Below are positions 33,949 through 58,400 of a stretch of 64,000 bases of DNA, one piece after another. Location of the stretch: assembly GCA_963745745.1 (NCBI GenBank), contig CAVUYS010000017.1, positions 17,734 to 81,733 of the forward strand, given 5' to 3'. The notes under the pieces were generated by a model. It was not told where the DNA came from. It saw only the letters and a list, made by a program, of their open reading frames with translations, and made no database searches. The position numbers and the translations under genes are program-made. Position 1 is the stretch's first letter. Every line of letters begins with the position of its first letter. The DNA comes from an uncultured Spirochaetota bacterium (lineage in GTDB: Bacteria > Spirochaetota > Spirochaetia > SZUA-6 > DRHE01).

Positions 33949-33969
33949 ACGAGCCAAAGGAGAAACGAA

Positions 33970-35990: not shown

Positions 35991-36002
35991 ACGGGAAGCG
36001 CC

Positions 36003-37890: not shown

Positions 37891-38474
37891 ACATCCTGAT
37901 CACCGGGGTCGGCGGGCAGGGCACGGTCACCCTGGGGGACCTGATCGCCGAGCGGGCCGCGGACCTGGGGCTGCCGGTCTCGGTGTTCCACTCCCGCGGC
38001 ATGGCCCACCGCGGCGGCCGCGTGGCCGGGGAGATCCGCATCGCCTCCCGGCCCGGCCAGCGCCTGGCCGCCCGCCTGTCCCCCGGCGGGGCGGACGTGC
38101 TGGTCGGCATGGAAGTCGGGGAGACGATCAACTCCCTGCCCTTCCTGCGCGAGGGAGGGGTGGCTTTGCTGATCGACTACCGTTACGTGCCCTCCGAGTC
38201 GGCGCTCAAGAAGGAGGCCTACCCGGATCTGCAGAAGGCGGTCGAGCTGTTCTCGCGCCGCACCCCGCGCGTCTTCGCCGTGGTGCGCCCGCCGGCGCCC
38301 GTGAACCTGTTCGCCCTGGGCTGCCTGAGCGCGGCGCTGCCGGAGGAAATGGACCCCCAGGGGATCTTCGACCCGCAGGGGCTGGAGGAAACCATCCGCG
38401 GTTTCCTGAAAAAGAACACGGCAGCGAACCTCGAAGTCTTCCGCCGGGGACGCCAGCATGCCAGCCGGGGTTAA
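37887..38474 (+). CDS. iorB: Indolepyruvate:ferredoxin oxidoreductase beta subunit
   Basis: ATGA overlap with iorA; MNILITGVGGQGTVTLGDLIAERA... 196 aa, typical IorB. Confidence 0.8.
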   Translation: MNILITGVGGQGTVTLGDLIAERAADLGLPVSVFHSRGMAHRGGRVAGEIRIASRPGQRLAARLSPGGADVLVGMEVGETINSLPFLREGGVALLIDYRYVPSESALKKEAYPDLQKAVELFSRRTPRVFAVVRPPAPVNLFALGCLSAALPEEMDPQGIFDPQGLEETIRGFLKKNTAANLEVFRRGRQHASRG

Positions 38475-41403: not shown

Positions 41404-42516
41404 CTATTTGCCCTTCCCCTCGCGCAGGGCGGCGGCCTCGCTCTCCAGGGCCTGCATCTCCTCCGCCGTGTCCAGCACCTGGAAGTCGATCTTCAGTGGT
41501 GTAGCTGGACTGCCCGGCCAGCATGGGCAGCTCCCCGCGCTCGCGCAGCACGCCGCGGCCCAGGGGCGTGACGTTCCCGGGCTCCAGGCCCAGCACGTAG
41601 AAACCCCGCAGCGGATTCTTCCACACGGTGAAGGCGGGCAGCTCCCGGCGGTCGAAGCGCATCACCAGGCCCAGCGGCGTCCCGTCGCCCGACGTCCGGG
41701 TTGAGCGAGGCCCACGAAGGTGCGCTCCTGGCGGTCCGCGGCCAGCTCCAGGAAGAAGACCTTCTCCTGATAGTCCTGGATCGGCGCGGGAAAGAGCAGG
41801 GCTTCCTCCACTCCCCGCCCCGCGCGGGCCTGCTCGTCCCGGGGCACCACCCCCCGGATCGGCCCCACCACCCGGGCCCCCGGGCCCAGCAGCGGGAAGC
41901 CGAAGTTGCAGTGGTACAGCAGCATCAGCGGCTGCTCGGCGAAGCCGCGGTTCTCCACCACGTCGTGCAGCGAGAAGCCTTTGGCCCCCAGGCGGGTTTC
42001 CAGCCTGCGGGTCAGGGTCATGTTCTCGCCGGCCAGGGCCTGCACCTCGCGCACCCGGCCCTTCAGCCGGATCAGGTACTCCTCCCCCTGCCACTCCTGG
42101 TCGATGGCCAGGTCCTCCGCCCCGGCGTTGGACACGCGCCCGTGCAGGCCGAAGGGGCGGCCCTGGTCCACGGTCGGGTGCCCGGCATTGGTGATGCCGC
42201 AGGTGGTCAGGAACCCGGCGAAGAAGCCGCGCAGCCAGCTGTCCCCGGGCTCGTCGTAGTAGGCGGGGGAGGTGATGCCGGTGCCGGAGAGGAAGCTCAG
42301 GGCCCGCCCGCGGAAGCTCGCTTCGGCGATGTCCATTCCCCTGCCCGGCAGCACGGTGAAGCTCAAGCCTCCTCCGGTGTCCACCCGGACGCCCTTGACC
42401 CCCTCGGCCTTGCCGTCGGCCAGCACGAAGGGCGTGGCCCCCGCCACTTGCGAGGGGTCCCCGATGAGCGAGAGCAGCTCTTCCTTCTTCCAGTTTCTTC
42501 CCAGGTAGCTTGCCAT
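41404..42516 (-). CDS. Aldose-1-epimerase-like (DUF4432-type) family protein; two frameshifts in the C-terminal third (about 41500 and about 41660)
   Basis: ..GITNAGHPTVDQGRPFGLHGRVSNAGAEDLAID.., ..MLLYHCNFGFPLLGPGARV..; the tail resumes as ..RFDRRELPAFTVWKNPLRGFYVLGLEPGN.. and then ..PLKIDFQVLDTAEEMQALESEAAALREGKGK*. Confidence 0.55.
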
Positions 42517-42534
42517 GTTGTTCTCCTGCCGGCG

Positions 42535-42852
42535 CTACTTGAAGTGGGCCAGCGACAGCTCGGTGCGCCCGATGAGGATGGTATCGGTCAGGGTCAGCCG
42601 CAGGTAGCTGCGCGGCGGCACCCGCTGCCCGTTGACCTGGGTGCCGTTGGTGCTGCCCAGGTCCTCCAGGAAGTACTCCTCCCCGATCTTCTGGATCACG
42701 GCGTGCCGGCGGGAGGCCAGCTTGTCCTCCAGGACGATGTCGTTGGCCTTGTCCCGCCCCAGGCGGATCTTGCCCACCAGCGGCACCCTCCGGCCCTGGA
42801 AGACGATGTAGGTGGTGCCGGCGCTGCGCATCTGGGACAGTCGCTTGCCCAC
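42535..42852 (-). CDS. FHA-domain protein (small, stand-alone)
   Basis: ..TYIVFQGRRVPLVGKIRLGRDKANDIVLEDKLASRRHAVIQKIGEEYFLEDLGSTNGTQVNGQRV.. canonical FHA. The listed start is GTG; the frame is open upstream to about 42920 where an ATG+AGGAGG lies one base out of frame. Confidence 0.7.
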   Translation of the reverse strand: MGKRLSQMRSAGTTYIVFQGRRVPLVGKIRLGRDKANDIVLEDKLASRRHAVIQKIGEEYFLEDLGSTNGTQVNGQRVPPRSYLRLTLTDTILIGRTELSLAHFK

Positions 42853-42955: not shown

Positions 42956-44521
42956 TCAGGGCGCGGTCCGGCGGTACACCAGCTGGTCGGACAGCACCAC
43001 CTGCTCCCCCTCCAGGTGCTCCAGGCCCTGGTCCAGCAGCACCGAGCCGCGGCTGACCGCCAGCTCCAGCAGGGCGCCCCGGAAACGGACGATGGCCTGC
43101 AGGAGATCGCGCTGCGACTCGGCGAGCTCCTCCTCGGCCTCGTAGACCCGGTGCATGTCGCTGGTCCCGGCCTCCAGGCGGGCCAGCTCCACCTCCAGCA
43201 GCCGCCGCTTCACGGCCGCCACCCGGCGCAGGCTCTCGATGCGGGCCCGCAGCGTGCCGACCCGCCCGAGCAGGGCCTCGATGCTGCGGCACATCTCGTA
43301 CTCCAGGGCCTCCAGGCGCACCTCCGCCAGCCTCTTCTTCAGCCGGGCCGCCTCCAGCTCGTTGCGCTCCCGGATGCCCAGCAGGAAAGGGGCCCGCATC
43401 TCCAGCCCGAGGGACCAGGTGGGAAAGCGCCCGCCCTCCAGCTTCCCCAGGGACTCTTCCGCCGTTTCGCCCAGACCCCGCAGGCCGTAGCTGCCCTTCA
43501 GGACCAGGTCCGGCAGGGCCTGGCTTTTGCGGTATCCCAGCAGCACGGCCTCCAGCCGCAGCTGTTCCCGGCGCATCATGTAGTCGGGCTGGGCGCGCCG
43601 CGCCCACTGGAGGGAGGAGGCCCGTTCGGCCTCCAGGTCGGCGGCCCCCGGAGCATCCGGCACCAGGGGGTCGGCGGCCACGATCCGCAGGTCCTCTGCG
43701 AGCCGCGCCCCGGCCATCAACAGCTTGAGCTGGGTCACCGCCTCCCGGACGGCCTGCCCCGCGTCGGCCCGCCGGGCCTGCCGGAGGGCCAGCTCGGCCT
43801 CCGCCTGCTGGAGGTCCAGCTCCGACATCTTTCCGCCCTGGACCCAGGCCGCGGCGTCGCGGGCCAGGTTGGCGGCAATCTGCAGGGAATCCTCTTCCAT
43901 GGCCAGGGCGGCCTGGGCCAAGGCGAGATTCCAGTAGGCCTGTTCCGCCTTCAGCAGCGTGTCCATCAGCTGCCGGCGGTACTCGTGGAAGGCGATATAG
44001 CGCTCCTGGCGGGCGGCGCGCAGCGGGGCCAGGGACGCCCCGTGGGTCAGCCCCTTCAACAGCGGCTGCTCCCCGGAAACGCCCACGAAGGACTCGAACT
44101 CCCCCTCATCGGCGTAGGAGTTCTCCATCCTCGTCACCGACCCGCCGAGGCGATAGGTTCCCCCGCCCGGCAGCTTGCCCTCCAGGCCCAGGCCGTATTC
44201 GTCGTTGGTCTCGAAGAACTCCAGGGCGCCCAGTTGCAGGACCTGCTGCAGGGAGGTATTCTCCCGCGTCAAAGAGTCCCGGCGGAAGTGGCCGGCCAGG
44301 GCCGGCTCGAAGGAGCCCCACTCGGAACGGGCCAGGCGGTAGCGGATCAGCCACTGCAGATACGCCTCGTCCACCGCCGGCTGGACCCGCACCGCCTCCC
44401 GCAGGAATTCCGCCAGGGTGAGGTTCAGCAGCGGGGCGTTTTCCTGTGCCGGGAGAAGCGCCGCCAGGCTCAGGCAAACGGCCAGCAGCAGGGTTCGAAC
44501 CATGGAAGTCGATGAATGCAT
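42956..44521 (-). CDS. TolC-family outer-membrane channel protein
   Basis: Signal peptide MHSSTSMVRTLLLAVCLSLAALLPAQE, two TolC repeats with coiled coils, about 520 aa. The extended ORF to 44641 overlaps the divergent hlyD start, so the start is placed at 44521. Confidence 0.8.
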   Translation of the reverse strand: MHSSTSMVRTLLLAVCLSLAALLPAQENAPLLNLTLAEFLREAVRVQPAVDEAYLQWLIRYRLARSEWGSFEPALAGHFRRDSLTRENTSLQQVLQLGALEFFETNDEYGLGLEGKLPGGGTYRLGGSVTRMENSYADEGEFESFVGVSGEQPLLKGLTHGASLAPLRAARQERYIAFHEYRRQLMDTLLKAEQAYWNLALAQAALAMEEDSLQIAANLARDAAAWVQGGKMSELDLQQAEAELALRQARRADAGQAVREAVTQLKLLMAGARLAEDLRIVAADPLVPDAPGAADLEAERASSLQWARRAQPDYMMRREQLRLEAVLLGYRKSQALPDLVLKGSYGLRGLGETAEESLGKLEGGRFPTWSLGLEMRAPFLLGIRERNELEAARLKKRLAEVRLEALEYEMCRSIEALLGRVGTLRARIESLRRVAAVKRRLLEVELARLEAGTSDMHRVYEAEEELAESQRDLLQAIVRFRGALLELAVSRGSVLLDQGLEHLEGEQVVLSDQLVYRRTAP

Positions 44522-44612
44522 GGCTGTGGCCATTATAGGGAAATTTCCACGGATGAAAAGCGATTGCATTCCCGAGCGGCCCGGTCTACAGTAGCGCAAC
44601 GATGAGGAAAGC

Positions 44613-45428
44613 ATGAGAGTCCGGCGACGAATCTCCGCCATTTTCTGCTTCCAGCTTCTGCTCCTTTCCGCCGCCTGGGGTCAGGGCCTGGCCCCGAGGG
44701 GGATCACCGAGCCCTGCCGGGACGCCACTTTGAGCGCCACGGTGGCCGGGACCCTGGCGGTCATCCACAAGAAGGAGGGGGAGCCGGTCCGCGCGGGGGA
44801 GGTGATCCTGGAACTGGAGAGGGACCTGGAGAGCATCGAGGTGGAACGGCGCCTGCTGATCGCGGAGAGCAAGGTGGAGCTGGAGGCGGCCCGCCGGCGG
44901 GCGGAACAGCTTGGCCTGGAGCTTCAGGCCACCCGCCGGCTGTACGACTCCACGGGGTCGGTGTCCCGGGAGCAGCTGCAGCAGAAGGAGCTGGAGGCCT
45001 CGCTGGCCGAAGCGGAGCTGGAGCGCCTGGCGATCGCCGAAAAGAGGGAAATGCTGGAGCTGCGCATCGCCGAGGCCCAGCTGCGGCAGCGCTCGATCGC
45101 CTCGCCGTTCGACGGGGTGATCGCCCAGATCATCCCCGAAATCGGGGAGGCCTGCCACCCGCAGCAGCCCCTGGTCCGCGTCGTGGACACCTCCCGCTGC
45201 CGGCTCATCGTCCATCTGGAAGCGGCTGCGGCGCTCCAGTTGGCGGCGGGAAAGCCGGCCCAACTCCGGTTCGACGGGATCCGCCCCCCCAACCTCGTGC
45301 GCGGCGTCGTGGAGCTGGTGTCGCCCGTAGTGGACCCGGCCAGCGGCCTGGTGCAAATCAAGGTGCTGTTCGACAACCCGGAGGGGCGGATCCGCCCCGG
45401 GTTGAGCGGCACCTTGCTCTTGAAGTGA
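44613..45428 (+). CDS. HlyD/membrane-fusion-protein family periplasmic adaptor (short form)
   Basis: Signal/anchor MRVRRRISAIFCFQLLLLSAAWG, biotin-lipoyl hairpin ..TVAGTLAVIHKKEGEPVRAGEVILELE.., coiled coil, beta-barrel ..IASPFDGVIAQI.. Confidence 0.8.
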   Translation: MRVRRRISAIFCFQLLLLSAAWGQGLAPRGITEPCRDATLSATVAGTLAVIHKKEGEPVRAGEVILELERDLESIEVERRLLIAESKVELEAARRRAEQLGLELQATRRLYDSTGSVSREQLQQKELEASLAEAELERLAIAEKREMLELRIAEAQLRQRSIASPFDGVIAQIIPEIGEACHPQQPLVRVVDTSRCRLIVHLEAAAALQLAAGKPAQLRFDGIRPPNLVRGVVELVSPVVDPASGLVQIKVLFDNPEGRIRPGLSGTLLLK

Positions 45429-47296
45429 AAGGTCAGGACGACGTGAAGGCGGATGCCGGGCAGCGGCCGGCGGAACAAGCAGGCTACCTGCAGGCCCTGG
45501 AAGGCCTGCAGAAGCTCCGCTCCTTCGAGGGCGAGCCTGCCCGCTTCTGGCCCCTGTACGCGCATCACCTGGTGATCGCCGCCGGGGCGGCCAGCGGGCT
45601 GATCGCCGTTCGGGAGGAAAGGCCGCAGCCGCACTGGAGGCCTCTGGCGCTGTCCCCCGCCAACCTGAAGGCGGGAGGCGTCTCCGAGGCCATGCTGGCG
45701 GGAGCCGAGGAGCGCCTGCAGGATTGCCTGCGAGAGGGGGCCGCCCGCTGGGAGCAGGCGGGCAACCAGCTGGCCGCGGTGCGCCTGCAGACGGGCGCCG
45801 GTCAGGAGGTCTGCCTGGCGGTGCTCCTGCTGGAAGCCGGCGATCCCTGCCCGCAGCAGGAGGTCCTGCGCCGCCTCGCCCTGGCTGCCGACATCCCGGC
45901 CGCCTACCAGCTCCTGCGCGTGGCCGCGGAATCCAGGACCCGGGTGGAGCAGCTGGCCAGCGTGCTGGACCTGATGGTCCTGCTCAACGCGGAAAAGAAC
46001 CTGCTGCCGGCGGCCATGCGCCTCTGCAACGAGCTGTGCTCCCGCCACCGCTGCGAGCGGGTGAGCCTGGGCTGGCTGGAAGGGGGCTACGTCCGCCTGC
46101 AGGCCATCAGCCACACCGACCAGTTCGACCGCAAGACCGAGGCCGTGCAGCTCCTGGAGGCGGCCATGGAGGAGGCCCTGGACCAGAACGCGGAGATCCT
46201 CTGGCCGCGGAACGACGACGGCGGCACGGTCCGCCGCGACCACCGCAACTTCGCCCGCGGCCAGGACGTCGCCCACCTGTGCTCCCTGCCGCTGCGGGTG
46301 GACGAGCAGGCCGTGGGCGTGCTGACCTGCGAGCGGGCCGCCAGTCCTTTCGCGGAAACGGAGCTGCGCCTCCTGCGCCTGTCCTGCGACCAGGCCGCCC
46401 GGCGCCTGGCGGACCTGAAGCGCAGCGACCGCTGGCTGGGGGCGCGCCTGGCCGCGGAAGCCAGGGAGGCCCTCGGCCGCCTGCTGGGCTTCGAGCACAC
46501 CTGGTTGAAGCTCCTGGCCCTGCTGGCGGCCGCCGGCCTGGGCTTCCTGTTCCTCGGCCGGGTCCCCTACCGGGTCAAGGCCCCGGTCGCCTTGAGGACG
46601 GACGACGTGGCCTACGTCACCGCCCCCTTCGACGGCCACCTCGAGCAGGTGCGCTTCCGGGTAGGCGATGCCGTGCAACAGGGCCAGGAGCTGCTGAGCC
46701 TGGACCGGACCAGCCTGCTCCTGCGGGAGGCGGAGCTGATCGCCGAGCAGAACCGCTACCTGGGCGAGCTGGAGAAGGCCCGGGCTTACGCCGCCACCGC
46801 CGACATGCGCATCACCCAGGCCATGTACGACCAGGCCTTCGCCCGGCACGAGCTGGTGCGCTACCAGCTGGCCCAGGCGGTGGTCCGCTCCCCGCTGTCC
46901 GGGGTGGTCATCGAGGGGGACCTGGCCGAGCGCCTCGGCACGCCCGTGCAGCAGGGCGACCTGTTGTTCAAGCTGGCGCGCATCGAGCGGCTGTACGCGG
47001 AAGTCGAGGTGAAGGAAGCCGACGTGCAGGAGCTCGCGGAGGGAATGGCAGGCAGGATCAGCCTGGCCAGCCGGCCTCAGGAGAGCTGGCCGATCCGCGT
47101 CCTGCGGGTGGAGCCGGCGGCCGTGGCCCGGGAGAAGGGCAACGCCTTCGTCGTGCGCTGCCTCCTGGAGGGCAGCCCGCAATCCTGGTGGCGCCCCGGG
47201 ATGACGGGCATGGCCCGGCTGGAAGCCGGCCGGCGCAAGCCGGTCTGGGTGCTGACCCACCGGACGGTGGATTTCCTGCGCCTGCGGCTCTGGTAG
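45425..47296 (+). CDS. Bitopic protein: about 370-aa cytoplasmic N-terminal domain (tentatively GAF-like, two Cys-containing subdomains) - TM helix - periplasmic HlyD-like adaptor domain
   Basis: GTGA start overlap; TM WLKLLALLAAAGLGFLFLG; HlyD blocks ..VTAPFDGHLEQVRFRVGDAVQQGQELLSLD.., coiled coil, ..VRSPLSGVVIEGDLAERLGTPVQQGDLLFKL.. Confidence 0.65.
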   Translation: MKGQDDVKADAGQRPAEQAGYLQALEGLQKLRSFEGEPARFWPLYAHHLVIAAGAASGLIAVREERPQPHWRPLALSPANLKAGGVSEAMLAGAEERLQDCLREGAARWEQAGNQLAAVRLQTGAGQEVCLAVLLLEAGDPCPQQEVLRRLALAADIPAAYQLLRVAAESRTRVEQLASVLDLMVLLNAEKNLLPAAMRLCNELCSRHRCERVSLGWLEGGYVRLQAISHTDQFDRKTEAVQLLEAAMEEALDQNAEILWPRNDDGGTVRRDHRNFARGQDVAHLCSLPLRVDEQAVGVLTCERAASPFAETELRLLRLSCDQAARRLADLKRSDRWLGARLAAEAREALGRLLGFEHTWLKLLALLAAAGLGFLFLGRVPYRVKAPVALRTDDVAYVTAPFDGHLEQVRFRVGDAVQQGQELLSLDRTSLLLREAELIAEQNRYLGELEKARAYAATADMRITQAMYDQAFARHELVRYQLAQAVVRSPLSGVVIEGDLAERLGTPVQQGDLLFKLARIERLYAEVEVKEADVQELAEGMAGRISLASRPQESWPIRVLRVEPAAVAREKGNAFVVRCLLEGSPQSWWRPGMTGMARLEAGRRKPVWVLTHRTVDFLRLRLW

Positions 47297-47306
47297 CGGG
47301 GACGGG

Positions 47307-49457
47307 ATGCTCGAAGAACGCAAGGTCTTCCACGAATCCTGGTATCGCATCGCCGGACAGCGCATCGCCCTGCGCTCCAGCGTCAAGGTGCGCCGCCAGA
47401 TGTACCGCGGCTCCCGCTGGTACCTGCTGCACGACCCTTTCAGCAACCAGTTCTACCGCCTGGCTCCGCCGGCCTACGCCTTCGTGGCCCGCTTAGGCCT
47501 GGAGCGGACCCTGGAAGAGGTCTGGCAGGAGAGCATGGCCCAGGACGCGGAGAACGCCCCCGGGCAGGAGGAGGTCATCCACCTCCTGGCCCAGCTCTAC
47601 CATGCCAACCTGCTGCACTACGAGCTGCCCGCGGACAGCCAGAAGCTGTTCGAGCGCTTCCGCGAGCGCAGGCAGAGGACCCGGCAGGCCACTGTTATGA
47701 ACATCATGTTCATCCGCCTGCCCCTTTTTGATCCGGACCGCCTGCTGCAACGCCTGCAGCCGGTGGCCCGCCTGCTGTTCAGCCCCCTGGGCCTGCTGGC
47801 CTGGGGCGCCGTGCTGGCGGGCGCCCTCAAGGTGGCCATCGAGAACTTCCCCGCATTGCGGGTGCAGAGCCAGGGCATCCTGGCCTTGCCCAACCTGCCC
47901 CTGATGTACCTGGCCCTCGTGCTGATCAAGGCCCTGCACGAGCTGGGCCACGCCCTGGCCGTACGCCGCTTCGGCGGGGAGGTGCACACCCTGGGGGTCA
48001 TGTTCCTGATCTTCAGCCCGCTGCCGTACATGGACGCCACCGCGGCCTGGGCCTTCCGCAGCAAATGGCGCCGGGTACTGGTGGGAGCCGCCGGGATGAT
48101 CGCCGAGTTGTTCGCGGCGGGCGTGGCCGTTTTCATCTGGGCCTCCACCGGACCGGGGATCCTGCACTCGCTGGCCTACAACACGATCTTCGTGGCCTCC
48201 CTTTCCACCATCCTGTTCAACCTCAATCCCCTGCTGCGCTTCGACGGCTACTACATCCTCTCCGACCTCCTGGACATCCCCAACCTGCACGCCCAGGCCG
48301 GCCGGCAGCTGCGCCACCTGGTGGAGCGCTTCGCCTTCGGCGTGCGCCAATCCCGCGGTCCGGCGGGCACCCGCAGCGAAGCGTTCTGGCTCTCGGTCTT
48401 CGGGGCCTTGAGCGGCGCCTACAAGCTGGTGGTGTTCTCCACCATCCTGCTGGTGGTGGCCGACCGCTTCCTGCTGGCGGGGGTGATCATGGCCGCGGTT
48501 TGCGCGGTGGCCTGGGTGCCGGCGCCCCTGGTGCGCCTGGGGCGCTACCTGGCGGGAAGCCCGCGCCTGGAGCGCGTCCGCTTGAGGGCCGCGGGGGTCT
48601 GCCTGGGCGCGCTGGCCCTGCTCTTCGGCCTGCTGTGCTTCCTGCCCTTCCCCAACGGCTTCAAGGCGCCGGGAGTCCTGGAGGCCGCCGAGCACATCGT
48701 GGTGGCCAACGGCGTGCCCGGAACCATCGAGCGGATCCTGGCCAGCCCGGGAAGCCGGGTCCGGAAGGGCGATGCGCTGGTCGCCTTGCGCAACGGGGAG
48801 CTGGCCTTCCGCATCCAGGAGGTGCAGGCCAGCCTGCGGCAGGTGCAGGCCACGCGCCAGAAGGCCCTGCTGTCCAGCCGGGCGGACCTGCGCTCCATCG
48901 ACAGCCTGGAGTCCACCTTCCTGCAGCAGTTGGACCGCCTGCGGCAGGACGAGCAGCGGTTGGTGCTCCGCGCCGAGATCGGCGGGCGCTGGTCGGCCCC
49001 GCAGCTCAAGGACTTGCGGGGCATGTGGATCCGCCGCGGCACGCCGCTGGGCCAACTGCTGGACGACCGGGCTTTCGTTTTCACCTCCGTGGTCTCCCAA
49101 CAGGAGGTCTCCCGGCTGTTTTCCGATGCCATCCGCTCCTCCCAGGTCCGCCTGGCCGGCCAGGCGGGGGTGGACCTGGAAGTGCTCTCGATGACCCGCA
49201 TTCCCGCGGAGCTGACCCGCCTGCCTTCGATCTCCCTGGGTTTCGCCGGCGGCGGGGAGGTGGCCGTGAACGTCCGGGAATCCAGCGGCGCGATCGCCGC
49301 CGAGCCTTTTTACGAAGTGAGGATGGAAGTGGCCGGCGGGGCGGCCCTGTATCACGGCCGCTCCGGTCGCGTGCGCTTCCGGCTGGAGCCGGAGCCTCTC
49401 CTGCGGCAGGGCTACCGCCGCCTGCGCCAGCTGCTGCAGCGGCGCTACCAGTTGTAG
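47307..49457 (+). CDS. Peptidase-M50 (site-2-protease-like) polytopic membrane metalloprotease fused to a C-terminal periplasmic HlyD-like adaptor domain, with about 130-aa N-terminal cytoplasmic domain
   Basis: HExxH inside TM (ALHELGHALAV) and M50 second motif NLNPLLRFDGYYIL. C-terminal lipoyl-like hairpin ..GTIERILASPGSRVRKGDALVAL.., long coiled coil, ..YHGRSGRVRFRL.. barrel. Confidence 0.65.
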   Translation: MLEERKVFHESWYRIAGQRIALRSSVKVRRQMYRGSRWYLLHDPFSNQFYRLAPPAYAFVARLGLERTLEEVWQESMAQDAENAPGQEEVIHLLAQLYHANLLHYELPADSQKLFERFRERRQRTRQATVMNIMFIRLPLFDPDRLLQRLQPVARLLFSPLGLLAWGAVLAGALKVAIENFPALRVQSQGILALPNLPLMYLALVLIKALHELGHALAVRRFGGEVHTLGVMFLIFSPLPYMDATAAWAFRSKWRRVLVGAAGMIAELFAAGVAVFIWASTGPGILHSLAYNTIFVASLSTILFNLNPLLRFDGYYILSDLLDIPNLHAQAGRQLRHLVERFAFGVRQSRGPAGTRSEAFWLSVFGALSGAYKLVVFSTILLVVADRFLLAGVIMAAVCAVAWVPAPLVRLGRYLAGSPRLERVRLRAAGVCLGALALLFGLLCFLPFPNGFKAPGVLEAAEHIVVANGVPGTIERILASPGSRVRKGDALVALRNGELAFRIQEVQASLRQVQATRQKALLSSRADLRSIDSLESTFLQQLDRLRQDEQRLVLRAEIGGRWSAPQLKDLRGMWIRRGTPLGQLLDDRAFVFTSVVSQQEVSRLFSDAIRSSQVRLAGQAGVDLEVLSMTRIPAELTRLPSISLGFAGGGEVAVNVRESSGAIAAEPFYEVRMEVAGGAALYHGRSGRVRFRLEPEPLLRQGYRRLRQLLQRRYQL

Positions 49458-49460
49458 GCC

Positions 49461-51446
49461 ATGAGCTTTCTGTCCCGCGACTACCTGCGCACGGACATCC
49501 GGCAGCCGCCGGAGCTGTACCGCGGCCTGGACGCCTGGCTGTTCTCGCTGGTGAACTGGGTGAACCAGGGCCCCGGACCGGTCGGCGAGCATCTGGCCCG
49601 CGCCCGCCTGGTCGACGAGCGGGCGGCGGCCTGGAAGGACCTGAGGGAGAGGACCCTGAGCGCCCGCCTGCTGGAGTTCCGGCAGGCCTTCCGGCGCCGC
49701 CGGCAGGCGGAGGAGCTGCTCCTCGACGCGCTGGCGGCCATCCGCGAGGCGGCCTTCCGCCACCTGGGCCTGCGCCCCTACCCCGTCCAGCTGGCCGGCG
49801 CCCTGGCCCTGCACCGCGGCTGCCTGGCGGAGATGTCCACGGGGGAAGGCAAGACCCTCACCGCGGCCATGACGGGCATCCTTCACGGCTGGACCGGGCT
49901 GCCCTGCCATATCATCACGGTGAACGACTACCTGGCCGGGCGCGACGCGCGTTGGATGCAGCCGCTGTACCGCTTCTGCTGGGTGTCCGCCGGCAGCGTG
50001 ACCTCGGAGATGGGCCCGGCGGAGCGGCGCGAAGGCTACCGCCGGGAGGTGACCTACACCACCAACAAGGAGATCGTGGCCGACTTCCTGCGGGACCGCC
50101 TCTGGCTGGGCGGCCTGCAGGACAGCGGCCGCAGGCAGATCGCCAGTCTGCTGGGCCGCAACCAGCTGATCGAGCAGGGGATGGTCATGCGCGGCATCCA
50201 CGCCGCCATCGTGGACGAGGCCGACAGCATCCTGATCGACGAGGCGGTCACTCCGCTGATCATTTCCCGCGCCTCGCCCAACGCGGTGTTCAGCGAGGCC
50301 TGCCTGCTGGCCCACGAGCTGGCCCGCGGCCTGGAGCGGGACCGCGACTACGCGGTGAATCAAAAACGCCAGGAGATCGAGCTGCACCCCGATCTGGAAC
50401 GACGCCTGGCCGAGCGGATCCGCGGCTCGGGAGCCCGCTACCGGGGCTTGAGCGGCTACCTGGAGCTGGTGCACCAGGCCTTGAGCGCCAGGGAGTTCTT
50501 CCACCGCGACAAGCAGTACGTTCTATCAGAAGGCAAGGTGGTCATCGTGGACGAGTTCACCGGGCGCCAGATGCCGCAGAGGACCTGGCGAGCCGGCCTG
50601 CACCAGTTCATCGAGGCCCGGGAGGGGTTGGCTCTGACCCCGCCTTCGGAAACCCTGGCCCGCCTGAGCTTCCAGCGCTTCTACCGCTTCTTCCGGCGCC
50701 TGTCGGGGATGACCGGAACGGCCCGCGAGGCCCTCCAGGAGTTCTGGGACATCTACCGCCTGCCCACGGTCAGGATCCCGGAAAACCGTCCCTGCCGCCG
50801 GCAGCATCTGCCCACCCTGGCTTTCGCCGACTCCGAATCCAAGTGGCGGGCGCTGGTGGAGGAGATCCGGGGCGTCCACGCCCAGGGCAGGCCGGTGCTG
50901 GTGGGCACGCGGAACGTGCGGGCCAGCGAGAAGCTCTCCGCCCGCCTGACCGGCTTGCGGCTGGAGCACCGGGTGCTCAACGCCGTCCGCCATCAGGAGG
51001 AGGCCCTGATCGTGGCCGGCGCGGGCAGCCGGGGGGCCGTCACTATCGCCACCAACATGGCCGGCAGGGGCACGGACATCCGCCTGGGCGAGGGCGTGGC
51101 CGGGCTGGGGGGGCTGCACGTCATCGCCTCGGAATGCCACGAGTCCCAGCGCATCGACCGGCAGCTCTTCGGCCGCTCCGCCCGCCAGGGCGACCCGGGA
51201 AGCGCCCGCCTGTTCGTGAGCCTGGAGGATGAGATTCCCGGCCGCCACCTTCCGGAAGCGCTGCGGCGCCTGCTTCGCCTGGAGCTGCAGCGCCGCTTTC
51301 CGGCGGCCGGGCTGCAGGCGGCGGCGGCCGTCCGCCTGGCCCAGCTTTCCGCCCAGCGGCAGGCCTACCGACGCCGCCGGGCCGTGCTCGAAATGGACAA
51401 CTGGCTGGAGGATTCGCTCTCCTTCGGCCAGCGGGAGATCAACTGA
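49461..51446 (+). CDS. SecA-like ATPase comprising only the motor core (NBD1 - preprotein-crosslinking region - NBD2); lacks helical-scaffold/wing/C-terminal domains of canonical SecA (661 aa vs about 900)
   Basis: EMSTGEGKTLTAAM (Walker A), HIITVNDYLAGRDARWMQPLYRF, IVDEADSILIDEAVTPLIIS (Walker B / DEAD), GRPVLVGTRNV...VTIATNMAGRGTDIRLG...LHVIASECHESQRIDRQLFGRSARQGDPGSARLFVSLED. Ends about 60 aa into the helical scaffold. Confidence 0.8.
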   Translation: MSFLSRDYLRTDIRQPPELYRGLDAWLFSLVNWVNQGPGPVGEHLARARLVDERAAAWKDLRERTLSARLLEFRQAFRRRRQAEELLLDALAAIREAAFRHLGLRPYPVQLAGALALHRGCLAEMSTGEGKTLTAAMTGILHGWTGLPCHIITVNDYLAGRDARWMQPLYRFCWVSAGSVTSEMGPAERREGYRREVTYTTNKEIVADFLRDRLWLGGLQDSGRRQIASLLGRNQLIEQGMVMRGIHAAIVDEADSILIDEAVTPLIISRASPNAVFSEACLLAHELARGLERDRDYAVNQKRQEIELHPDLERRLAERIRGSGARYRGLSGYLELVHQALSAREFFHRDKQYVLSEGKVVIVDEFTGRQMPQRTWRAGLHQFIEAREGLALTPPSETLARLSFQRFYRFFRRLSGMTGTAREALQEFWDIYRLPTVRIPENRPCRRQHLPTLAFADSESKWRALVEEIRGVHAQGRPVLVGTRNVRASEKLSARLTGLRLEHRVLNAVRHQEEALIVAGAGSRGAVTIATNMAGRGTDIRLGEGVAGLGGLHVIASECHESQRIDRQLFGRSARQGDPGSARLFVSLEDEIPGRHLPEALRRLLRLELQRRFPAAGLQAAAAVRLAQLSAQRQAYRRRRAVLEMDNWLEDSLSFGQREIN

Positions 51447-51465
51447 TGCAAGGGGGAACACCACG

Positions 51466-52053
51466 ATGAAAGCGCAAGCCCGCATCCTGCTGGCAATCCT
51501 GACCCTGACGATCTGCCTTCCCGCTGCCGCCCAGGAAGCGGAATCCAAGGAGCCCTGGCTCTTCGTAGGGCCGCGCGCCGGCGTCACCTGGGCGATGACC
51601 AGCGCCAGCCGCTTCGACCAGGAGCTGCAGACGCTGTATCCCAGCGGGCGCTCCTACTTCCCCCTGTACAGCCAGCTGGGGCTGAGCCTGTCCCAGCACC
51701 TCCGCCTGCGCCCGAGCGGTTACCGGCTGATGATCCAGGAAGGGGCGCTGCTGTCCGGACTGGACCAGAACTACGCGCTGCCCACCCTGAACCTGCTGGT
51801 CGGCCTGCACTTCGCCCTCGGGGTGGAGGCCAGCCTGGGTCCGGAGCTCACCTTCCCGCCCAACGGCGGAGTGCAGGCGGCCCTGGTCTACGCCGTGGGC
51901 TGGAGATTCTCCCTGAAGGCGGCCTCCGTGCCGGTGCTCCTGGTGTTCAGCCCGCTTCCGGAGGACCGGCTGGCGCGGCTCACCCTGCTCTCCGGCGTCG
52001 ACTTCGAGCTCCTGCCGAAGATCCAGAGGAAAAAGACGCCTTTCAACTACTGA
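51466..52053 (+). CDS. Small outer-membrane beta-barrel-like protein (signal peptide, alternating amphipathic strands, C-terminal ...F-N-Y)
   Basis: MKAQARILLAILTLTICLPAAAQEA signal peptide; 195 aa; last gene of the operon. Confidence 0.5.
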   Translation: MKAQARILLAILTLTICLPAAAQEAESKEPWLFVGPRAGVTWAMTSASRFDQELQTLYPSGRSYFPLYSQLGLSLSQHLRLRPSGYRLMIQEGALLSGLDQNYALPTLNLLVGLHFALGVEASLGPELTFPPNGGVQAALVYAVGWRFSLKAASVPVLLVFSPLPEDRLARLTLLSGVDFELLPKIQRKKTPFNY

Positions 52054-52070: not shown

Positions 52071-52421
52071 CTAGTTTCCGCTGGGACTGCCGGGACCGCG
52101 CTTCTTCTCCATCATCTCCACCTGGCTCATCAGCCAGTAGGCCAGGGCCTTGGCCTGCCCCGGGCTCATGATCACCCCCACCTGGGACTGGCGCGTGAAC
52201 GGGGAGTCCTTCGGGCTGCGCTCGATCTCCGGCCCGATCCCGTCCGGGGTGAGGGAGTGCACCGACTCCTCCGGAACTTCCAGGTACTCGATGAAGAGAT
52301 CGAACTTGACGTCCCCCCGGGGGGTGGCGCCTCCAAGCGCGCCGTTGGCGAAGACGATCCGGTACTCCGGGTGCTTCTCGTAGCGGTACACGATCCTCTT
52401 GCGGGCAAACCCTTCTTCCAT
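52071..52421 (-). CDS. Small cytoplasmic protein, DUF3467-like
   Basis: MEEGFARKRIVYRYEKHPEYRIVFANGALGG...VGVIMSPGQAKALAYWLMSQVEMMEKK; about 116 aa, between the giant adhesin gene and the operon end. Confidence 0.45.
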   Translation of the reverse strand: MEEGFARKRIVYRYEKHPEYRIVFANGALGGATPRGDVKFDLFIEYLEVPEESVHSLTPDGIGPEIERSPKDSPFTRQSQVGVIMSPGQAKALAYWLMSQVEMMEKKRGPGSPSGN

Positions 52422-52425
52422 GGGC

Positions 52426-55400
52426 TCAATGATGCCCGCATTTGTCGCCGAAAACCAGCTCCACCCAGTTGCGCCGGCCAAGCCGGGCCGCCGAAGCCGC
52501 GATGTCCTCCAGCAGCCGCTCCAGCCACGGGTTGGCCACCGCGACCAGCACCGGATCCTGGCCGCCGTCGCCCTGCCTTTCCAGATCGCAGCCCGGGCCT
52601 CCGTCCAGGTGGTCGCAGTGGCTGCCGCCGTACAGCCGGTCCGCCCCGTCCTCGCCGAACAGGGCATCCTCGTCGCGGCCGCCCAGCAGCACGTCGTTGT
52701 CAGCTCCACCGTACAACCGGTCGCGGCCTTCCTGGCCGTACAGGATGTCCGCTCCCTCCCCGCCGCCGAGCAGGTCGTCGCCGGAGCGCAGAGTGAAGTG
52801 TCCGTGGTCGCAGTCGTCCCCGCCCGGGCCATAGGGCTGCGCCTGCAGCTCGACGGAGAAGGTCGAGCACTGGTAGGCGAAAACGGGCTTCACTGCGGCG
52901 TTGTCCCCGAAGGCCACATCGTCGCCGCCCTCGCCCTCGATCCGGTCGGCGCCGCTGTGCACGTTGGCCTCCGGCGGCCGGCAGCCGCAACCGCCGCAGC
53001 AGCCATGATCGTGCTCGCCGCCGTGGAAATCGTGCCCGTAGGACGGGTCGGCATGCGCATCGCGGAGCAGGCCCGCCGCGGCGGCCAGCAGGCTGTCGGC
53101 TGCCCGGTTGAGCTCCTCGGCCTCCTGGCGGCTGTCCGGCGCCTGCTGGAGGGCCGGGAGGATCAGCAGGGCGTGGTCACCCACCAGCAGGTCGGCATCC
53201 TCCCCACCGTAGAGCTCATCGTTGCCCACGTGGTACTCGTAGCCGGGCCGGTAAACGATCAGGCGCAGGTCCTTGGCCTTCGGCAGGCCTTCGAGAAGAT
53301 CCTCGTGATCGTGCTTCAGGTGCCAGTACAGCCGGGCGTCCAGTGCCTTGTCCTGGGCGGCGAGCGCCCATTCGGTGCTCTTCAACAGGCACCAATCCAC
53401 CGCCAGCGGATCCACCGTGTGCGCGGCGCTGCCGATGACGACCGGCAGGACCAGCACCGCGCTGTCGCCGACGATGGTGTCCTCCCCCGCCCCGCCGTAG
53501 AGCCGATCGTTGCCCAGGAACAGGCTCCGCAGGGCCAGGTCGACCAGGTCCTTGTCCCGGGGCGGGTGATGGCAGGGATTGTGCGCAATCGCATCGGCGA
53601 CCAGGCCCTGCAGGACTTCCCGGTGGGCCTCGGCCAGCAGGTGCTGGAAGTCCACGGCCACGTACTCGAGGTCGCGCAGGAAGCGATGGAAGTCCAGCGC
53701 CGCCTGCTGGAACTCGCCGGCCGGGACCTCGAAGCGGACGAACCAGGGGGCCAGCAGCGCCGCCTCATCGCCCACGATGGTGTCGTTGCCCGTCCCCCCG
53801 TCGACCGTGTCGCAGCCGATCACCACCGCGGAGGGGGACTGCACCCCCAGGACGACCCGTTCGTACAGGTCGTAGTCCAGCGCTACGTGGCGCATCCAGG
53901 CCAGAAGCTCGGAAAGCTCCTCCGTGAGCTCGCCCAGCGCCCGGTCGATCTCCTTCAGCCCCGTGACCAGCGGAGAGCCCATGGTCACCGGGTCGGCGAA
54001 GATCAGGTCATCCCCTGCGTCCCCCCGCAGCAGGTCGTTCCCGGGCAGGACATCGGGGTGATGGACCACATCGGGGACCAGCTGGATGTAGGCCGAAAGC
54101 ATCGTGCCGTCGCTGCAGGACAGGCGATCGCCCAGGGCGATTTCCAGCAGCGCCGGATTGACGTCGGTGTACAGGGTGAGCTGCGGTTGGAGCGCGGCCA
54201 GCTCATCGGGGACCAGCTGCACGTCGGCCACGATCAGGGAGCCGCCGCTTTCCAGGTCGATGGGCACCGCCGCCCCGGCGGCGATGCCGATCAGGCGCAC
54301 GCCGCTCACGATCTGGGGCAGGTCGGAGGCCAGGCTCATGGTGTTGACCCCGCCGTCCCCGAAGAGCAGGTCCGCGCCGTCCCCGCCGCTGATCGTGTCG
54401 TTCCCGCGCTGGCCGAACAGGACGTCGTCGCCCTCCCCGCCGTCCAGCAGGTCGTCGTCGGCCGGCACCAGGTCGATCAGCAGGGCCTCCGTGCGCCAGG
54501 CCCCATTGTCCGGGCTGGTAGAGCGGCGCGCCGTCCGGCCCGAAGGCTCCGGCCAGCACGATCAGGTCGGCCTGGAACAGGGCCCGGGCCAGCTCCGCCA
54601 GCGGCAGGCCAAGCGGCGTGCGGTCCATGGGCAGCAGCCCGGTGAGGAAGCCCACCTCTTCGAGGAACACATCCCGGTGCCAGGAGCCGTTGGAGTTCTC
54701 AAGCGGCGTTCCGTCCCCGCTCCAGGCGCGCAGGATGAGCCCCACGTCGCCGAGGACGAAATCCCGCCCCTCCTGTCCCCACAGGCTGTCGGGGCCCAGT
54801 TCGCCGTACAGCTCGTCGTCTCCCGAGCCGCCGTACAGCGTGTCCGCCCCGCGCTGGCCGTGCAGAATGTCGTCGCCAGGGCCGCCGAGCATGGTGTCGT
54901 CACCGGCCACCCGGTCGAGGTCGTCGAAGCGGACCAGGTCGCGGATCACGTCGGCGAACGGCGCGGGATAGCGCTCCCATTCGCCCCCGGGCAGCAGGCG
55001 GCGCAAGATCGTCCCGTTGTCGCCCAGCAGCACATCGGCCCCGCTCCCGCCGTCCATGGTGTCGGAGCCGTCCGCGCCGAAGGGGACGTTGTGCCCGCCG
55101 GTCAGGTCGTCCTCGCCGTCCTCACCGCAGAGCAGGTCGTCCCCCTGCTGGCCCAGGATGAAGTCATCCCCCGCACCGCCGAAGATCGCGTCGTTGCCGC
55201 CCGCATCCGTCGGGCCGGTGTAGATCGACTGGAACCTCTGGTTGGCCGGAAGGGCCGTATCCCAGCGCCCATGGTCGCCCAGCAGGATGTCGGAGCCTTC
55301 CCCGCCCAGGATGAGGTCGGCGCCGGTCCCGCCGAACACCAGGTCATCCCCGGCGAGGGCGGAGAGGTCATCGTTGCCGCCGACCAGGGGATCCACCGAG

Positions 55401-58400
55401 AAGATGCGCGCCGGAGCGCGGGCCACCCCGTCCGTCCGGTCCCCGGGCCCGCCGTTGCCAAGCACGGTCACGATTTGGCCGGCCTCGTCCAGGTAGAGCA
55501 CCCGGCCGCGGTCGCCGAACAGGATGTCCGCGCCGGTCCCGCCGGTGATCTGATCCGCGTCCTGGCCGCCGAACACGATCAGCGGCAGGCTGGAGGCCGA
55601 TCCGTCGACGAAGTCCGCATCAGCCAGCCAGGGGAAGGACTGCCAGGGACCCTGGGTGTTGAGCACGAAGAACCCGTCCGTGGCCTCGTCCAGGGCCACG
55701 GTGACCCGGTCGTTGCCCAGACCGGTGTTCAAGGTGGTCACGGTGCGCACGCCGGGGCGCTGGTGGGTGCCGTCGATGGCGATGACCTCCGCGCCCCAGC
55801 CGCTCCACAGCGTGATCCCGTCGGCGAAGTTGCCCTCCGCATCGGCGCGGAAGCCGATCGGCGCCGGCGCCAGGCCAATGATCGAGATCTCGGCCAGGGG
55901 CAGGTCGGCTACCGGCTGGTCGGTGATGAAAACCGCGGCGTCCCCGGCCAGGGCCGCTTCGTCGCTCACCATGAGCAGGTGGCGGCCGGAGCCGGCGTCC
56001 AGGAACAGCGGGCCGAGCAGGCCGTCCAGGTTGCCTTCCAGGAAATCCGTTTCCGCGCCGCTGGCCAGATTCGAGACGTAGATCCGCTCGTCCCCGTCAT
56101 GCAGCCGGATGGAGGTGGCCGCCCGCGTGCCCTGCACGTTCAGCACGTCGGCCCCGGAGCCCAGGTCGAGGTTCAGGATTTCCAGGGCGGCGTAGCGGAT
56201 GCCCGCGGTGCGCAGCTCCGCGACCACCGGGGCGGTCAGACAGCGTCCGTCCACCTGCAGGAGCAGGGCGCCGGCCTGAGGCACGGTGCCGTAGTGCACC
56301 GTGAAGGTGTCGCCGCTGCGGGTGACGTTGATCCCCTCCGTGCCCAGGGCGTCGTTGAGCGCGGCCTGCACCGCCGCGGCCCCCGCGTCGAATCCCAGGG
56401 GACCGGTCCAGCTTCCGCCCAATCCCAGGCGCCAGGTGCCGGCCACGGCGTTCAGGGTGAAGGAGGCGCTGCCCTGGCCCTGCTGGACCTGGGAAACCCC
56501 GCTCACGCTCAGGGCCAGCCCCTGGCCCGCCGCTCCGGCCAGGATGCCCCGATAGCCGACCAGGAAGGCGTTTCCGATCGGCAGCACCGCCACGTCGTCG
56601 AAGCCGGCCGTCTCCAGCCCCGGCAGCGTGCGCAGGGCGTTCAGCAGGGCCAGCTCGACATCCGCGGCGCCCGCGCCCGCGCTCAGCGCGAAGGTGGCGC
56701 CGCCGACGGTGACCTCGTAGGTGCCGAAGGCCGCGTACAGGTCCAGCACCTGCTAGCGGTCCACGGGAGCGGGCTGGGCGACGAGGGCCGGCGCGGCGCC
56801 GGGGGCGGGATCCAGCTGGGCGGCATTCCCGCTCAGCGCCAGAGAGGCGGCCAGCAGCTGCTCATCCCCGCTGAAGGCAATGCGGAAGCAGTCCCCAGCC
56901 CGGTTGACGGTGACCTCCGTCACGTGCGGCAGACCCAGGGCCAGCAGGGCGATGCGGATTTCCGAGGCGCTGGCCCGCAGGGGGAGCGGCGCCGTGGTAA
57001 GGCCCCCAACGCTCAGGGTGAAGGTGCCGCCGGCCGCCCCCTGGATGCTCACGGTCCAGACCAGCGCTTCGGCCAGGTCCAGGCCGCTGAGGGTGGTGCC
57101 GGTCAGCCAGACCACGTCCGCGGTGGCGTCCCCGCCGTCGTTCACGTTCAGCGTGTCCAGCCCGGTCCCGCCGTCCACCACCAGCAGGCCGTCGAGGCGG
57201 TCCACCGCCTGATCGGCCGGCTCCCCCGCGTTGACGAGGTCATTGCCGGCTTCCATCCGCAGCAGGGTGGTCCCCGCGATGCTCTGCACGTCGATCTGGT
57301 CGGCGCCGGGCCCGGCGTACACTTCAGTGGCCCCAGCGTGCGTGGAAAGGATCAGCAGCCGGTCGTTCCCGGAGCCCAGGCGCAGGACCAGTTCCTCCAG
57401 GTCCTGGTAGCCGATCCCCTCCGGCCCCAGGCCCAGCCCGGCCAGAAGGCTCTCGCTGAGGCGTGCCCGTTGTGTCCGCCAGGCTGCCGGTGCTGTAGGC
57501 CCGCAGGGTGTCGACCTGCTCGCACTCCACCGCCTCCAGGTTGGGGTTGGCTTCCCCGACGAACAGGTCCGGATCGCTCTCCCCCAGGTACAGGACCGGT
57601 TCGGGGATTTCCTGCTCCTCCGTGGTTCCGCCGAAGAGCTGCAGCGCTCCCTGGATGCCCTCCAGCGTCCACGGGCTGCTCAATCCGAAACCGACCGGCC
57701 CGGAGCTCCCGCCCACCTCGATCGCGTCGCTGCCCAGGCCGCCGAAGACGCGTGTGACCGCCAGCGCGCTGGTGCCGAGCACCACGATGCGGTCATCCCC
57801 CTCCGCCGCGTCCAGGTCCAGGCTCTCCACCCCGGTGTAGGTCGCGGAGAGGCCGGCCCCGTACACGCCCTGGGCGGTGACCGCGAACAGGTCGGCGAAC
57901 TCCGTGCCGGTCACCACCTGCAGGTCCTGCCCTTCCCCGCCGTCGATGGCCAGCGGCCCGCTGGCCGCGTACAGGACGGAGTCCTCATCGCCGAGGCTCA
58001 GGGGATCGGCGGCCTGCGAGCCCTGCAGGGCGAAGAGGCGCACCGCGAAGCGGTCATCCCCCTGCTCGCCGTTCAGCTGCAGCGCGGCCCCGTTGTGGAA
58101 GACCGTGAAGCGGTCGTCGCCCGGCCCGCCGTTGAGGGTGGCGGCCTGGCTGGTCCCGGCGCTGAGCCAGCCGCGGGTGGTGGTGAGGGTGTCGATCTCA
58201 TCCCCCGCCGCTACCTGGGACCACTCGCGCGGAGACTGGAACAGCTGGCCCACCTGGAAGCGATCCGCTCCTTCGCCTCCGTAGATCGTGGTCGGGGCGC
58301 TGTTGTCGTCCAGGCTGAAGGTGTCGTCGCCGGCGCGCCCGTGGATGGCCAGGCCTTCCAGCGAGGCGTTGTAGTTCACCCGCTCCGCCGTGGGGCTCTG

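Follow-up and report, generated by a model that had tools for sequence, protein, structure and literature searches.

The stretch of DNA analyzed here (the window) comprises 64,000 nucleotides of contig CAVUYS010000017.1 from an uncultured Spirochaetota bacterium. At positions 47307 to 49457, it carries an open reading frame (ORF) that combines, in one protein, a predicted recognition element for the leaders of peptides that are made by ribosomes and modified after translation (a RiPP recognition element, or RRE), the membrane core of an M50 site-2 protease (S2P), and a membrane-fusion-protein (MFP) domain. The gene lies in a conserved cluster of transport genes, and the cluster recurrently adjoins genes for giant proteins that begin with a motif called LEPR-XLL. 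The parts of the fusion gene, with secondary structure taken from an AlphaFold2 (AF2) model, are as follows.

47307-49457, plus strand: RRE-M50-MFP fusion gene; ATG start, 716 codons, 716 amino acids
47355-47621, plus strand: predicted cytoplasmic PqqD-like RRE, residues about 17 to 105; four strands, then three helices
47757-48641, plus strand: M50/S2P membrane core, residues about 151 to 445; about seven transmembrane (TM) helices; core supported by hydropathy, AF2, Pfam and NCBIfam
47937-47951, plus strand: HExxH zinc-binding/catalytic motif, H211 to H215 (ALHELGHAL); invariant in an alignment of 113 sequences
48219-48248, plus strand: NxxPxxxxDG motif, N305 to G314 (NLNPLLRFDG); D313 is the presumed third zinc ligand
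48645-49454, plus strand: predicted periplasmic MFP domain, residues 447 to 716; lipoyl/barrel-sandwich part, alpha-hairpin at 497 to 550, beta-barrel and terminal helix

The fusion is conserved across thousands of homologs. More than 3,555 homologs of the 716-residue protein came up in a word-indexed search, and the best 120 of them were nearly all 716 to 722 residues long, at 52 to 94% identity. Named sources included Spirochaetales, Deltaproteobacteria, Latescibacterota, Gemmatimonadetes, Chitinispirillaceae, Fibrobacteria and Thermodesulfobacteriota. Moreover, when 1.84 billion representatives were scanned exhaustively with HMMER, 4,296 clusters (at 50% identity) matched the fusion at an E value of 1e-30 or below, and in the best 150 of these clusters the alignment ran from end to end, with identity down to 30% and the architecture of about 715 residues kept. 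An earlier note, made from the letters of this DNA, had proposed the fusion and allowed that a frameshift might have joined two genes; homologous fusions were recovered in number, together with conserved neighbors. Because full-length homologs are abundant, we exclude the joining of a protease gene and an adaptor gene by frameshift or misassembly. Such an artifact has a probability that we regard as negligible: the frame is unbroken, GC content at third codon positions is uniform (0.93, usual for real genes in a window of about 70% GC), homologs of 715 to 720 residues number in the thousands, and full-length homologs also occur on complete isolate plasmids.

The membrane core is that of an M50 protease. 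Residues H211, E212, H215, N305, N307, P308, D313 and G314 are invariant among the 113 aligned sequences. By hydropathy, about seven segments between residues 156 and 448 lie in the membrane, with the HExxH motif at the end of the segment spanning 191 to 215, and the helices of the AF2 model of the whole protein concur (mean pLDDT, 84.1). Thus, an M50/S2P core with both motifs in a polytopic membrane region, as first proposed from the letters, holds. Domain annotation with hidden Markov models agrees by a small margin, as Pfam Peptidase_M50 (PF02163) scored 27.6 bits against a cutoff of 27.2 and covered only residues 201 to 291. The top NCBIfam match was the daptide intramembrane metalloprotease family NF041824 (daptide_HExxH; E value of 1.4e-48, residues 23 to 403), and the second was the YydH/LiaK family NF058609 (9e-8). 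The protein reaches the equivalog cutoff of neither family (165.9 versus 300 and 32 versus 225, respectively). JGI labels homologs "putative peptide zinc metalloprotease." From hydropathy and the AF2 model we infer an N-in topology with seven TM helices, in which both motifs would sit at cytoplasmic helix ends and the adaptor domain would be periplasmic. The earlier note had built the protease into the periplasmic adaptor layer; the predicted topology instead puts the active site on the cytoplasmic side of the inner membrane.

The N-terminal domain, previously left unassigned, can now be assigned. Profile matches and structure models indicate that it is a PqqD-like RRE, as in the daptide protease MpaP. 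In the AF2 model, four strands and three helices occupy residues 20 to 99 and are followed by a linker helix at 112 to 134. A separate model of residues 1 to 128 (pLDDT, 83.6) had as its top Foldseek match a lasso-peptide B1 protein with its leader (6jx3_B; probability of 1.0, target TM-score of 0.71), followed by the TbiB1-leader complexes 5v1u and 5v1v, ThcOx, and the sactipeptide-synthase entry 5wgg, at modest E values of 1e-2 and weaker. Pfam PqqD was matched by 25 of the 32 homolog N termini scanned singly (best E value, 3.9e-6), the alignment to NF041824 begins at residue 23 and so takes in the RRE, and RefSeq names the proteobacterial plasmid homologs "PqqD family peptide modification chaperone." A profile of the domain searched against PDB sequences gave only a chance match. 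The RRE is conserved to the same degree as the protease core (mean top-residue frequency of 0.72 versus 0.73), a level that matches the conservation of the LEPR-XLL leader motif across phyla. The suggestion that a cytoplasmic N-terminal module recognizes a substrate is therefore strengthened by the PqqD matches and by the likeness to leader-bound RREs. In MpaP, an N-terminal RRE is fused to an intramembrane S2P, and leader removal is RRE dependent (10.1101/2023.03.08.531785).

MpaP (NF041824) and EpeP/YydH (NF058609) are the known systems nearest to the first two parts of the protein. Each has an N-terminal RRE and an M50/S2P core, as here, and it is established for those pathways that the leader is first recognized and then removed. 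They have no adaptor domain, however, and their substrates are short peptides encoded together with modification enzymes. The protein studied here adds a C-terminal MFP domain, fails both equivalog cutoffs, and is tied to giant proteins of 4,000 to 12,000 residues.

As modeled, the C-terminal part clearly has a genuine MFP fold, with a weak sequence signal and a strong fold signal. Strands at residues 447 to 495 and 553 to 563 are interpreted as the lipoyl/barrel-sandwich part, helices at 497 to 523 and 528 to 550 form an alpha-hairpin, and strands at 580 to 697, interpreted as the beta-barrel, precede a terminal helix. Foldseek against PDB matched MacA (1.9e-12; target TM-score, 0.60) and also MexA, AcrA, ZneB and CusB, and a family profile matched EmrA among PDB sequences at 4e-6. 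HlyD_D23 in Pfam and TIGR01730 both scored below cutoff for the 716-residue protein (26.1 versus 30 bits and 33.5 versus 94.9, respectively). The HlyD-like adaptor that had been proposed for this end of the protein is borne out by the matches to MacA, MexA, AcrA and EmrA, as are its lipoyl-like part, hairpin and beta-barrel; the coiled coil described as long is not, as the hairpin is medium to short, with about 25 residues per arm. The domain shares with MacA, MexA, AcrA and EmrA the lipoyl, alpha-hairpin and beta-barrel fold (Foldseek E values of 1e-12 to 1e-8, target-normalized TM-score of about 0.6). Those proteins, however, are held by a single anchor helix or a lipid anchor, whereas here the domain is fused to a seven-TM protease, has a short hairpin, and comes with no RND, ABC or MFS partner.

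The fusion gene belongs to an operon, and its neighbors are as follows.

42956-44521, minus strand: TolC-like outer membrane factor, divergent from the operon; Pfam OEP, 4e-30; beside the cluster in 12 loci
44613-45428, plus strand: short HlyD-type adaptor, 271 amino acids; Pfam HlyD_D23 and HlyD_3, TIGR01730 at 121 bits; in 18 of 20 loci
45425-47296, plus strand: GAF-TM-HlyD protein, 623 amino acids; Pfam GAF, HlyD_D23 and HlyD_3; in 20 of 20 loci
49461-51446, plus strand: truncated SecA-like ATPase, 661 amino acids; SecA_DEAD (7.8e-90), SecA_PP_bind and P-loop_SecA; in 14 loci
51463-52053, plus strand: small protein, 196 amino acids; signal-peptide-like N terminus, no Pfam match, C terminus ending PFNY
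52071-52421, minus strand: small cytoplasmic protein, 116 amino acids; directly downstream of the giant gene
52426-63980, minus strand: giant RTX-repeat gene, candidate cargo; at least 3,900 codons, HemolysinCabind matches; converges on the operon

Four genes, encoding the short HlyD, the GAF-TM-HlyD protein, the RRE-M50-HlyD fusion and the SecA-like protein, are separated by a 4-nt overlap or by gaps of 3 to 10 nt; the overlap is that of the GAF-TM-HlyD start with the stop of the short HlyD gene. The short HlyD protein has a signal-peptide-like N terminus, and the GAF-TM-HlyD protein has a cytoplasmic N-terminal region with the GAF domain, one hydrophobic stretch and an adaptor domain. The ORF of the TolC-like gene runs to 44641, but translation probably begins at the methionine at 44521, after which comes a signal-peptide-like stretch, and a promoter-like site lies at 44559-44532. 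The SecA-like protein retains the SecA_DEAD, preprotein cross-linking and second nucleotide-binding domains in Pfam and aligns only to residues 26 to 604 of Bacillus subtilis SecA in PDB, such that the C-terminal third is missing. By the known domain boundaries of SecA, the parts that couple it to SecY, namely the wing domain, two-helix finger and C-terminal tail, are absent. No ABC, RND or MFS exporter was found among the scanned ORFs of the window, in the operon or in the related loci. A HlyB-type ABC transporter is likewise absent from near the adaptor, and the sole ABC_tran match lies in a histidine-kinase ORF at 30032-31906.

Two small proteins may be accessories. The gene for the 196-residue protein trails the SecA-like gene only in a spirochaete-like clade (eight loci; tblastn matches in loci L002 to L004, L006, L007, L009 and L014), and its product may be a small outer membrane beta-barrel accessory. 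Copies of the 116-residue protein that are about 70% identical occur in L006, L009, L020 and L021. This protein matched Pfam DUF3467 below cutoff (E value, 0.0032), its alignment to true DUF3467 with hhalign was weak (probability, 23%) and confined to a C-terminal IMSPxxAKxL motif, and BLASTP found no homology to DUF3467. In alphaproteobacterial operons, a bona fide DUF3467 gene lies between the giant gene and the adaptor genes, the same place as 52071-52421, and the 116-residue protein could be a cargo chaperone. Genes for an FHA-domain protein (105 amino acids, 42535-42852) and a DUF4432 protein (284 amino acids) lie at 41662-42852 on the minus strand, downstream of the TolC-like gene and on the same strand. 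We rejected both as parts of the system, as they were conserved beside the cluster in no other locus.

Genes for giant proteins recur beside the cluster. A giant protein of 1,800 to 12,700 residues, often with RTX repeats, adjoins it in 15 of 22 informative loci. Those from metagenome-assembled genomes (MAGs) and metagenomes are L004, L009, L014, L020 (8,291 residues), L022, L023 (5,808 residues), L024, L026 and the P0078 locus (4,371 residues). All five informative isolate plasmids have one as well, with lengths computed from record coordinates of 8,148 residues in Alisedimentitalea, 8,847 in Methylosinus, 10,518 in Mesorhizobium ciceri, 12,737 in Pseudosulfitobacter and 4,033 in Thalassospira marina. 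The giant gene of the window runs off the window's end, so that its N terminus lies beyond position 64000. Its coding sequence is split among four abutting or overlapping ORFs whose frames differ (57324-63980, 56753-57322, 54203-56749 and 52426-54468); the final two share 265 nt, and the tail of the 848-residue ORF resembles out-of-frame arginine-rich sequence. Homologs in L025 and L026 are similarly fragmented, and a search for full-length homologs of the window's giant protein recovered only fragments. At planctomycete and Fibrobacter loci, the large neighbors formed no consistent family.

The giant proteins share an N-terminal motif. All 10 readable giant N termini carry LEPR-XLL, of the form F-x-L-E-x-L-E-P-R-L-L-L-S-A-D. 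Three of the 10 scored above the cutoff of NCBIfam NF012209 ("LEPR-8K"), one was named by PGAP (the Thalassospira marina giant, a "LEPR-XLL domain-containing protein"), and the rest were recognized by direct reading. The L025 and L026 homologs of the window's giant protein, two of the 10, are at 48 to 49% identity and begin KFQLEPLEPRLLLSG and RFNLEPLESRLLLSA, and one of the two lies directly after a copy of the cluster. An example of the putative leader, 30 residues long, is KFQLEPLEPRLLLSGSGILD. In Alisedimentitalea scapharcae (L029, NZ_CP123586.1, about 183224-183330), the 8,148-residue "calcium-binding protein" has the motif VEQLEPRLLLAAD in frame and just upstream of its annotated methionine, and the RefSeq start of that protein is probably set too far downstream. 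A regular expression for LEPR-XLL had no other match in long ORFs when 24 of the loci and the window were translated in six frames.

The module is not confined to spirochaetes. In the window, genes for all five proteins (OEP, HlyD, GAF-HlyD, M50-HlyD and SecA-like) are packed across 42956-51446, and the gene order is identical in the MAG and metagenome loci L001 to L014 and L020 to L024. The module was found in Spirochaetes, Fibrobacteres, Verrucomicrobia, Chitinispirillaceae, Latescibacterota, Gemmatimonadetes and Alphaproteobacteria, with Spirochaetaceae MAGs nearest to the window's copy (65 to 68% identity). Planctomycete loci L015 to L019, at 30% identity, keep the HlyD, GAF-HlyD and M50-HlyD genes. 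On the Thalassospira plasmid, the GAF-HlyD, RRE-M50-HlyD, short HlyD, TolC and LEPR-XLL giant genes are all present. We note that RefSeq labels the SecA-like gene "prepilin peptidase" in Methylosinus (L028, 17198-19114) and "DEAD/DEAH box helicase" in Mesorhizobium (L032, 14162-16123); in Pfam, both have SecA_DEAD, SecA_PP_bind and P-loop_SecA.

The fusion and its neighborhood are already known from a paper of 2015 and from RefSeq naming. "Secondary SecA_DEAD" proteins were described as adjoining Peptidase_M50/HlyD, HlyD, GAF/HlyD and sometimes OEP proteins, and it was proposed that the SecA-like protein is a substitute ATPase and the M50 protein a possible membrane component (Kamneva, Poudel & Ward 2015, PLoS One, PMC4452313). 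That module, a computational description, has the same gene set as here and is likewise without an ABC transporter; here, a spirochaete-like genome carries it, as do Fibrobacteres, Latescibacterota, Gemmatimonadetes and others. In the literature searched, we found no experimental or functional study of the M50, HlyD and SecA module beyond the 2015 paper and incidental mentions, and LEPR-XLL was mentioned in only two papers, each time incidentally. The RRE within a secretion module and the link to LEPR-XLL giants and DUF3467 appear to be unreported in the searchable literature.

What the fusion protein does is suggested by its parts and its neighbors. We consider it probable that the protein belongs to an ABC-less, TolC-dependent exporter of giant proteins with a LEPR-XLL leader and acts there as receptor, leader peptidase and adaptor subunit in one. 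The RRE would dock the conserved leader of the cargo in the cytoplasm, as suggested by fold and synteny, and the truncated SecA-like ATPase may drive the ATP-dependent handling of the unfolded giant chain. The M50 site at the cytoplasmic face of the membrane would then remove the leader, a step for which the invariant catalytic residues and the MpaP precedent argue, and removal would release the cargo into the conduit or free it from the machine. Finally, the fused MFP domain and its GAF-HlyD and short HlyD paralogs may form a periplasmic duct to the TolC-like channel, consistent with the structure matches and strict co-conservation. A coupling of cleavage to passage or release, already raised from the letters, fits the TolC-like gene, the two HlyD paralogs, the SecA-like ATPase and the adjacent giant RTX gene. 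We put at about an even chance the broader proposal that RiPP-style leader logic (RRE plus M50 peptidase) was co-opted into an ABC-less, TolC-dependent machine, with LEPR-XLL as a dedicated secretion leader for proteins of 4,000 to 12,700 residues and with the truncated SecA-like motor and the DUF3467-type accessory as optional parts.

Another related system is classical type I secretion, as in HlyBD-TolC and LapBCE. Both systems pair an adaptor with a TolC-like channel and have a giant RTX cargo encoded alongside. Classical systems use an ABC transporter, however, whereas none is found here and a SecA-like ATPase is present; here, the adaptor paralogs number three, of which two carry cytoplasmic domains, and the cargo is marked by an N-terminal LEPR-XLL motif. 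Proteolysis at the N-terminal end of LapA controls the fate of LapA through LapG and LapD. LapG is a periplasmic cysteine protease; the enzyme here is an M50 protease of the inner membrane.

Several observations weigh against an exporter that recognizes and cleaves a LEPR-XLL leader. The N-terminal domain of the window's own copy has no Pfam PqqD match at an E value of 1 or below, and the GAF domain or the SecA-like protein could instead be the leader receptor. The SecA-like gene is absent from the fetched flanks of planctomycete loci L015 to L019 and from the fetched stretch of Thalassospira marina pCSC3H3 (L034); the motor assignment is therefore not universal. No giant gene lies within 10 kb of the cluster at seven informative loci (L001, L002/3, L006, L010, L011, L012 and L021), and the frame breaks in the giant gene of the window reflect either assembly frameshifts or a decaying gene. 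Known substrates of S2Ps are membrane-spanning helices, and the hydrophobic stretch of LEPR-XLL, at only 4 to 5 residues, is short for such a substrate. Finally, RTX cargo is typical of ABC-dependent type I secretion, and the data are compatible with a classical type I system elsewhere in the genome.

The same exporter and the same giant cargo might be served by a protease with another task, namely release, quality control or the clearing of jams, in which case the RRE or the GAF domain would be regulatory. We think this unlikely. In its release version, the protease would cut the N-terminal anchor of an adhesin that leaves C terminus first and stays tethered in the machine, as an analog of LapG at the inner membrane. 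RTX repeats near the C terminus of the cargo suggest type I-like secretion, a leader gripped by a cytoplasmic RRE would exit last, the GAF domain of the partner protein suggests control by a ligand, and the evidence from synteny is the same as for leader removal during export. The present data, however, fit leader removal during export equally well, and no LapD-like cyclic di-GMP module is conserved in the cluster.

A more doubtful alternative is that the system matures and exports small leader peptides of the RiPP or bacteriocin type, as an EpeP/YydH- or MpaP-like protease that an adaptor fusion has fitted to a two-membrane envelope, and that the giant genes are coincidental. The best family matches are indeed to RiPP leader peptidases, JGI naming points the same way, and a review (PMC10885120) notes the view that EpeP, an M50 enzyme, not only cuts its own peptide but also exports it. 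The scores, however, fall far under the equivalog cutoffs (166 versus 300 and 32 versus 225), and giant LEPR-XLL genes recur beside the cluster across phyla. Among ORFs of at least 50 residues clustered across 20 loci, nothing recurred but the transport genes and antisense shadow ORFs, with no conserved precursor or modification enzyme, although shorter ORFs lay outside the clustering. Moreover, the presence of a SecA-like protein that has a preprotein-binding domain favors long polypeptides as cargo. Least credible among the functional alternatives, and in our view very improbable, is a signaling S2P that cleaves an anti-sigma factor or another regulator and uses the HlyD-like domain as a periplasmic sensor. 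Signaling is the classical mode of M50 proteases, and an FHA-domain gene lies close by, but no conserved sigma/anti-sigma pair was found close to the fusion gene, neither the FHA gene nor the DUF4432 gene is conserved in other loci, and the strict conservation of the protein together with TolC, two other adaptors and the SecA-like protein speaks for transport.

Elsewhere in the window, other unusual ORFs were seen on the plus strand. A frame of 1,764 codons at 33180-38474 contains domains of the IclR helix-turn-helix, MtmB-like methyltransferase and pyruvate:ferredoxin oxidoreductase types; in this GC-rich DNA, where stops are few, it probably joins several genes into one frame, or else it is an unusual fusion. 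The histidine-kinase ORF at 30032-31906 combines an ABC-transporter ATPase with PAS, HisKA and HATPase_c domains, which is unusual if it is a single gene, and its neighbor at 28714-30069 is a sigma-54 response regulator. Two genes of the MTTB family (trimethylamine methyltransferase-like) lie at 15588-16952 and 18158-19561. Together with the MtmB-like segment, these two genes suggest a metabolism of methylated amines or glycine betaine.

Environmental and host-associated bacteria commonly have giant surface proteins of the RTX, Ig and LamG types. Apart from the ABC-driven type I pathway, the routes by which proteins of 8,000 to 12,000 residues exit are poorly understood. Here, we describe a large family, with its 4,296 clusters spread over many phyla, that was noted computationally in 2015, and we connect the M50-HlyD fusion to an RRE and the cluster to LEPR-XLL giants, with a shared absence of an ABC pump as the third link. 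These three links make a testable hypothesis, and cultured alphaproteobacteria in which to test it include Methylobacterium extorquens AM1, Mesorhizobium ciceri, Thalassospira marina and Methylosinus. The links also place two orphan annotations, the NCBIfam LEPR-XLL domain and Pfam DUF3467, in a functional setting. Ultimately, if the hypothesis is true, the cluster would represent a distinct and widespread pathway for the secretion of giant surface proteins, with the leader receptor and the leader peptidase within one machine.

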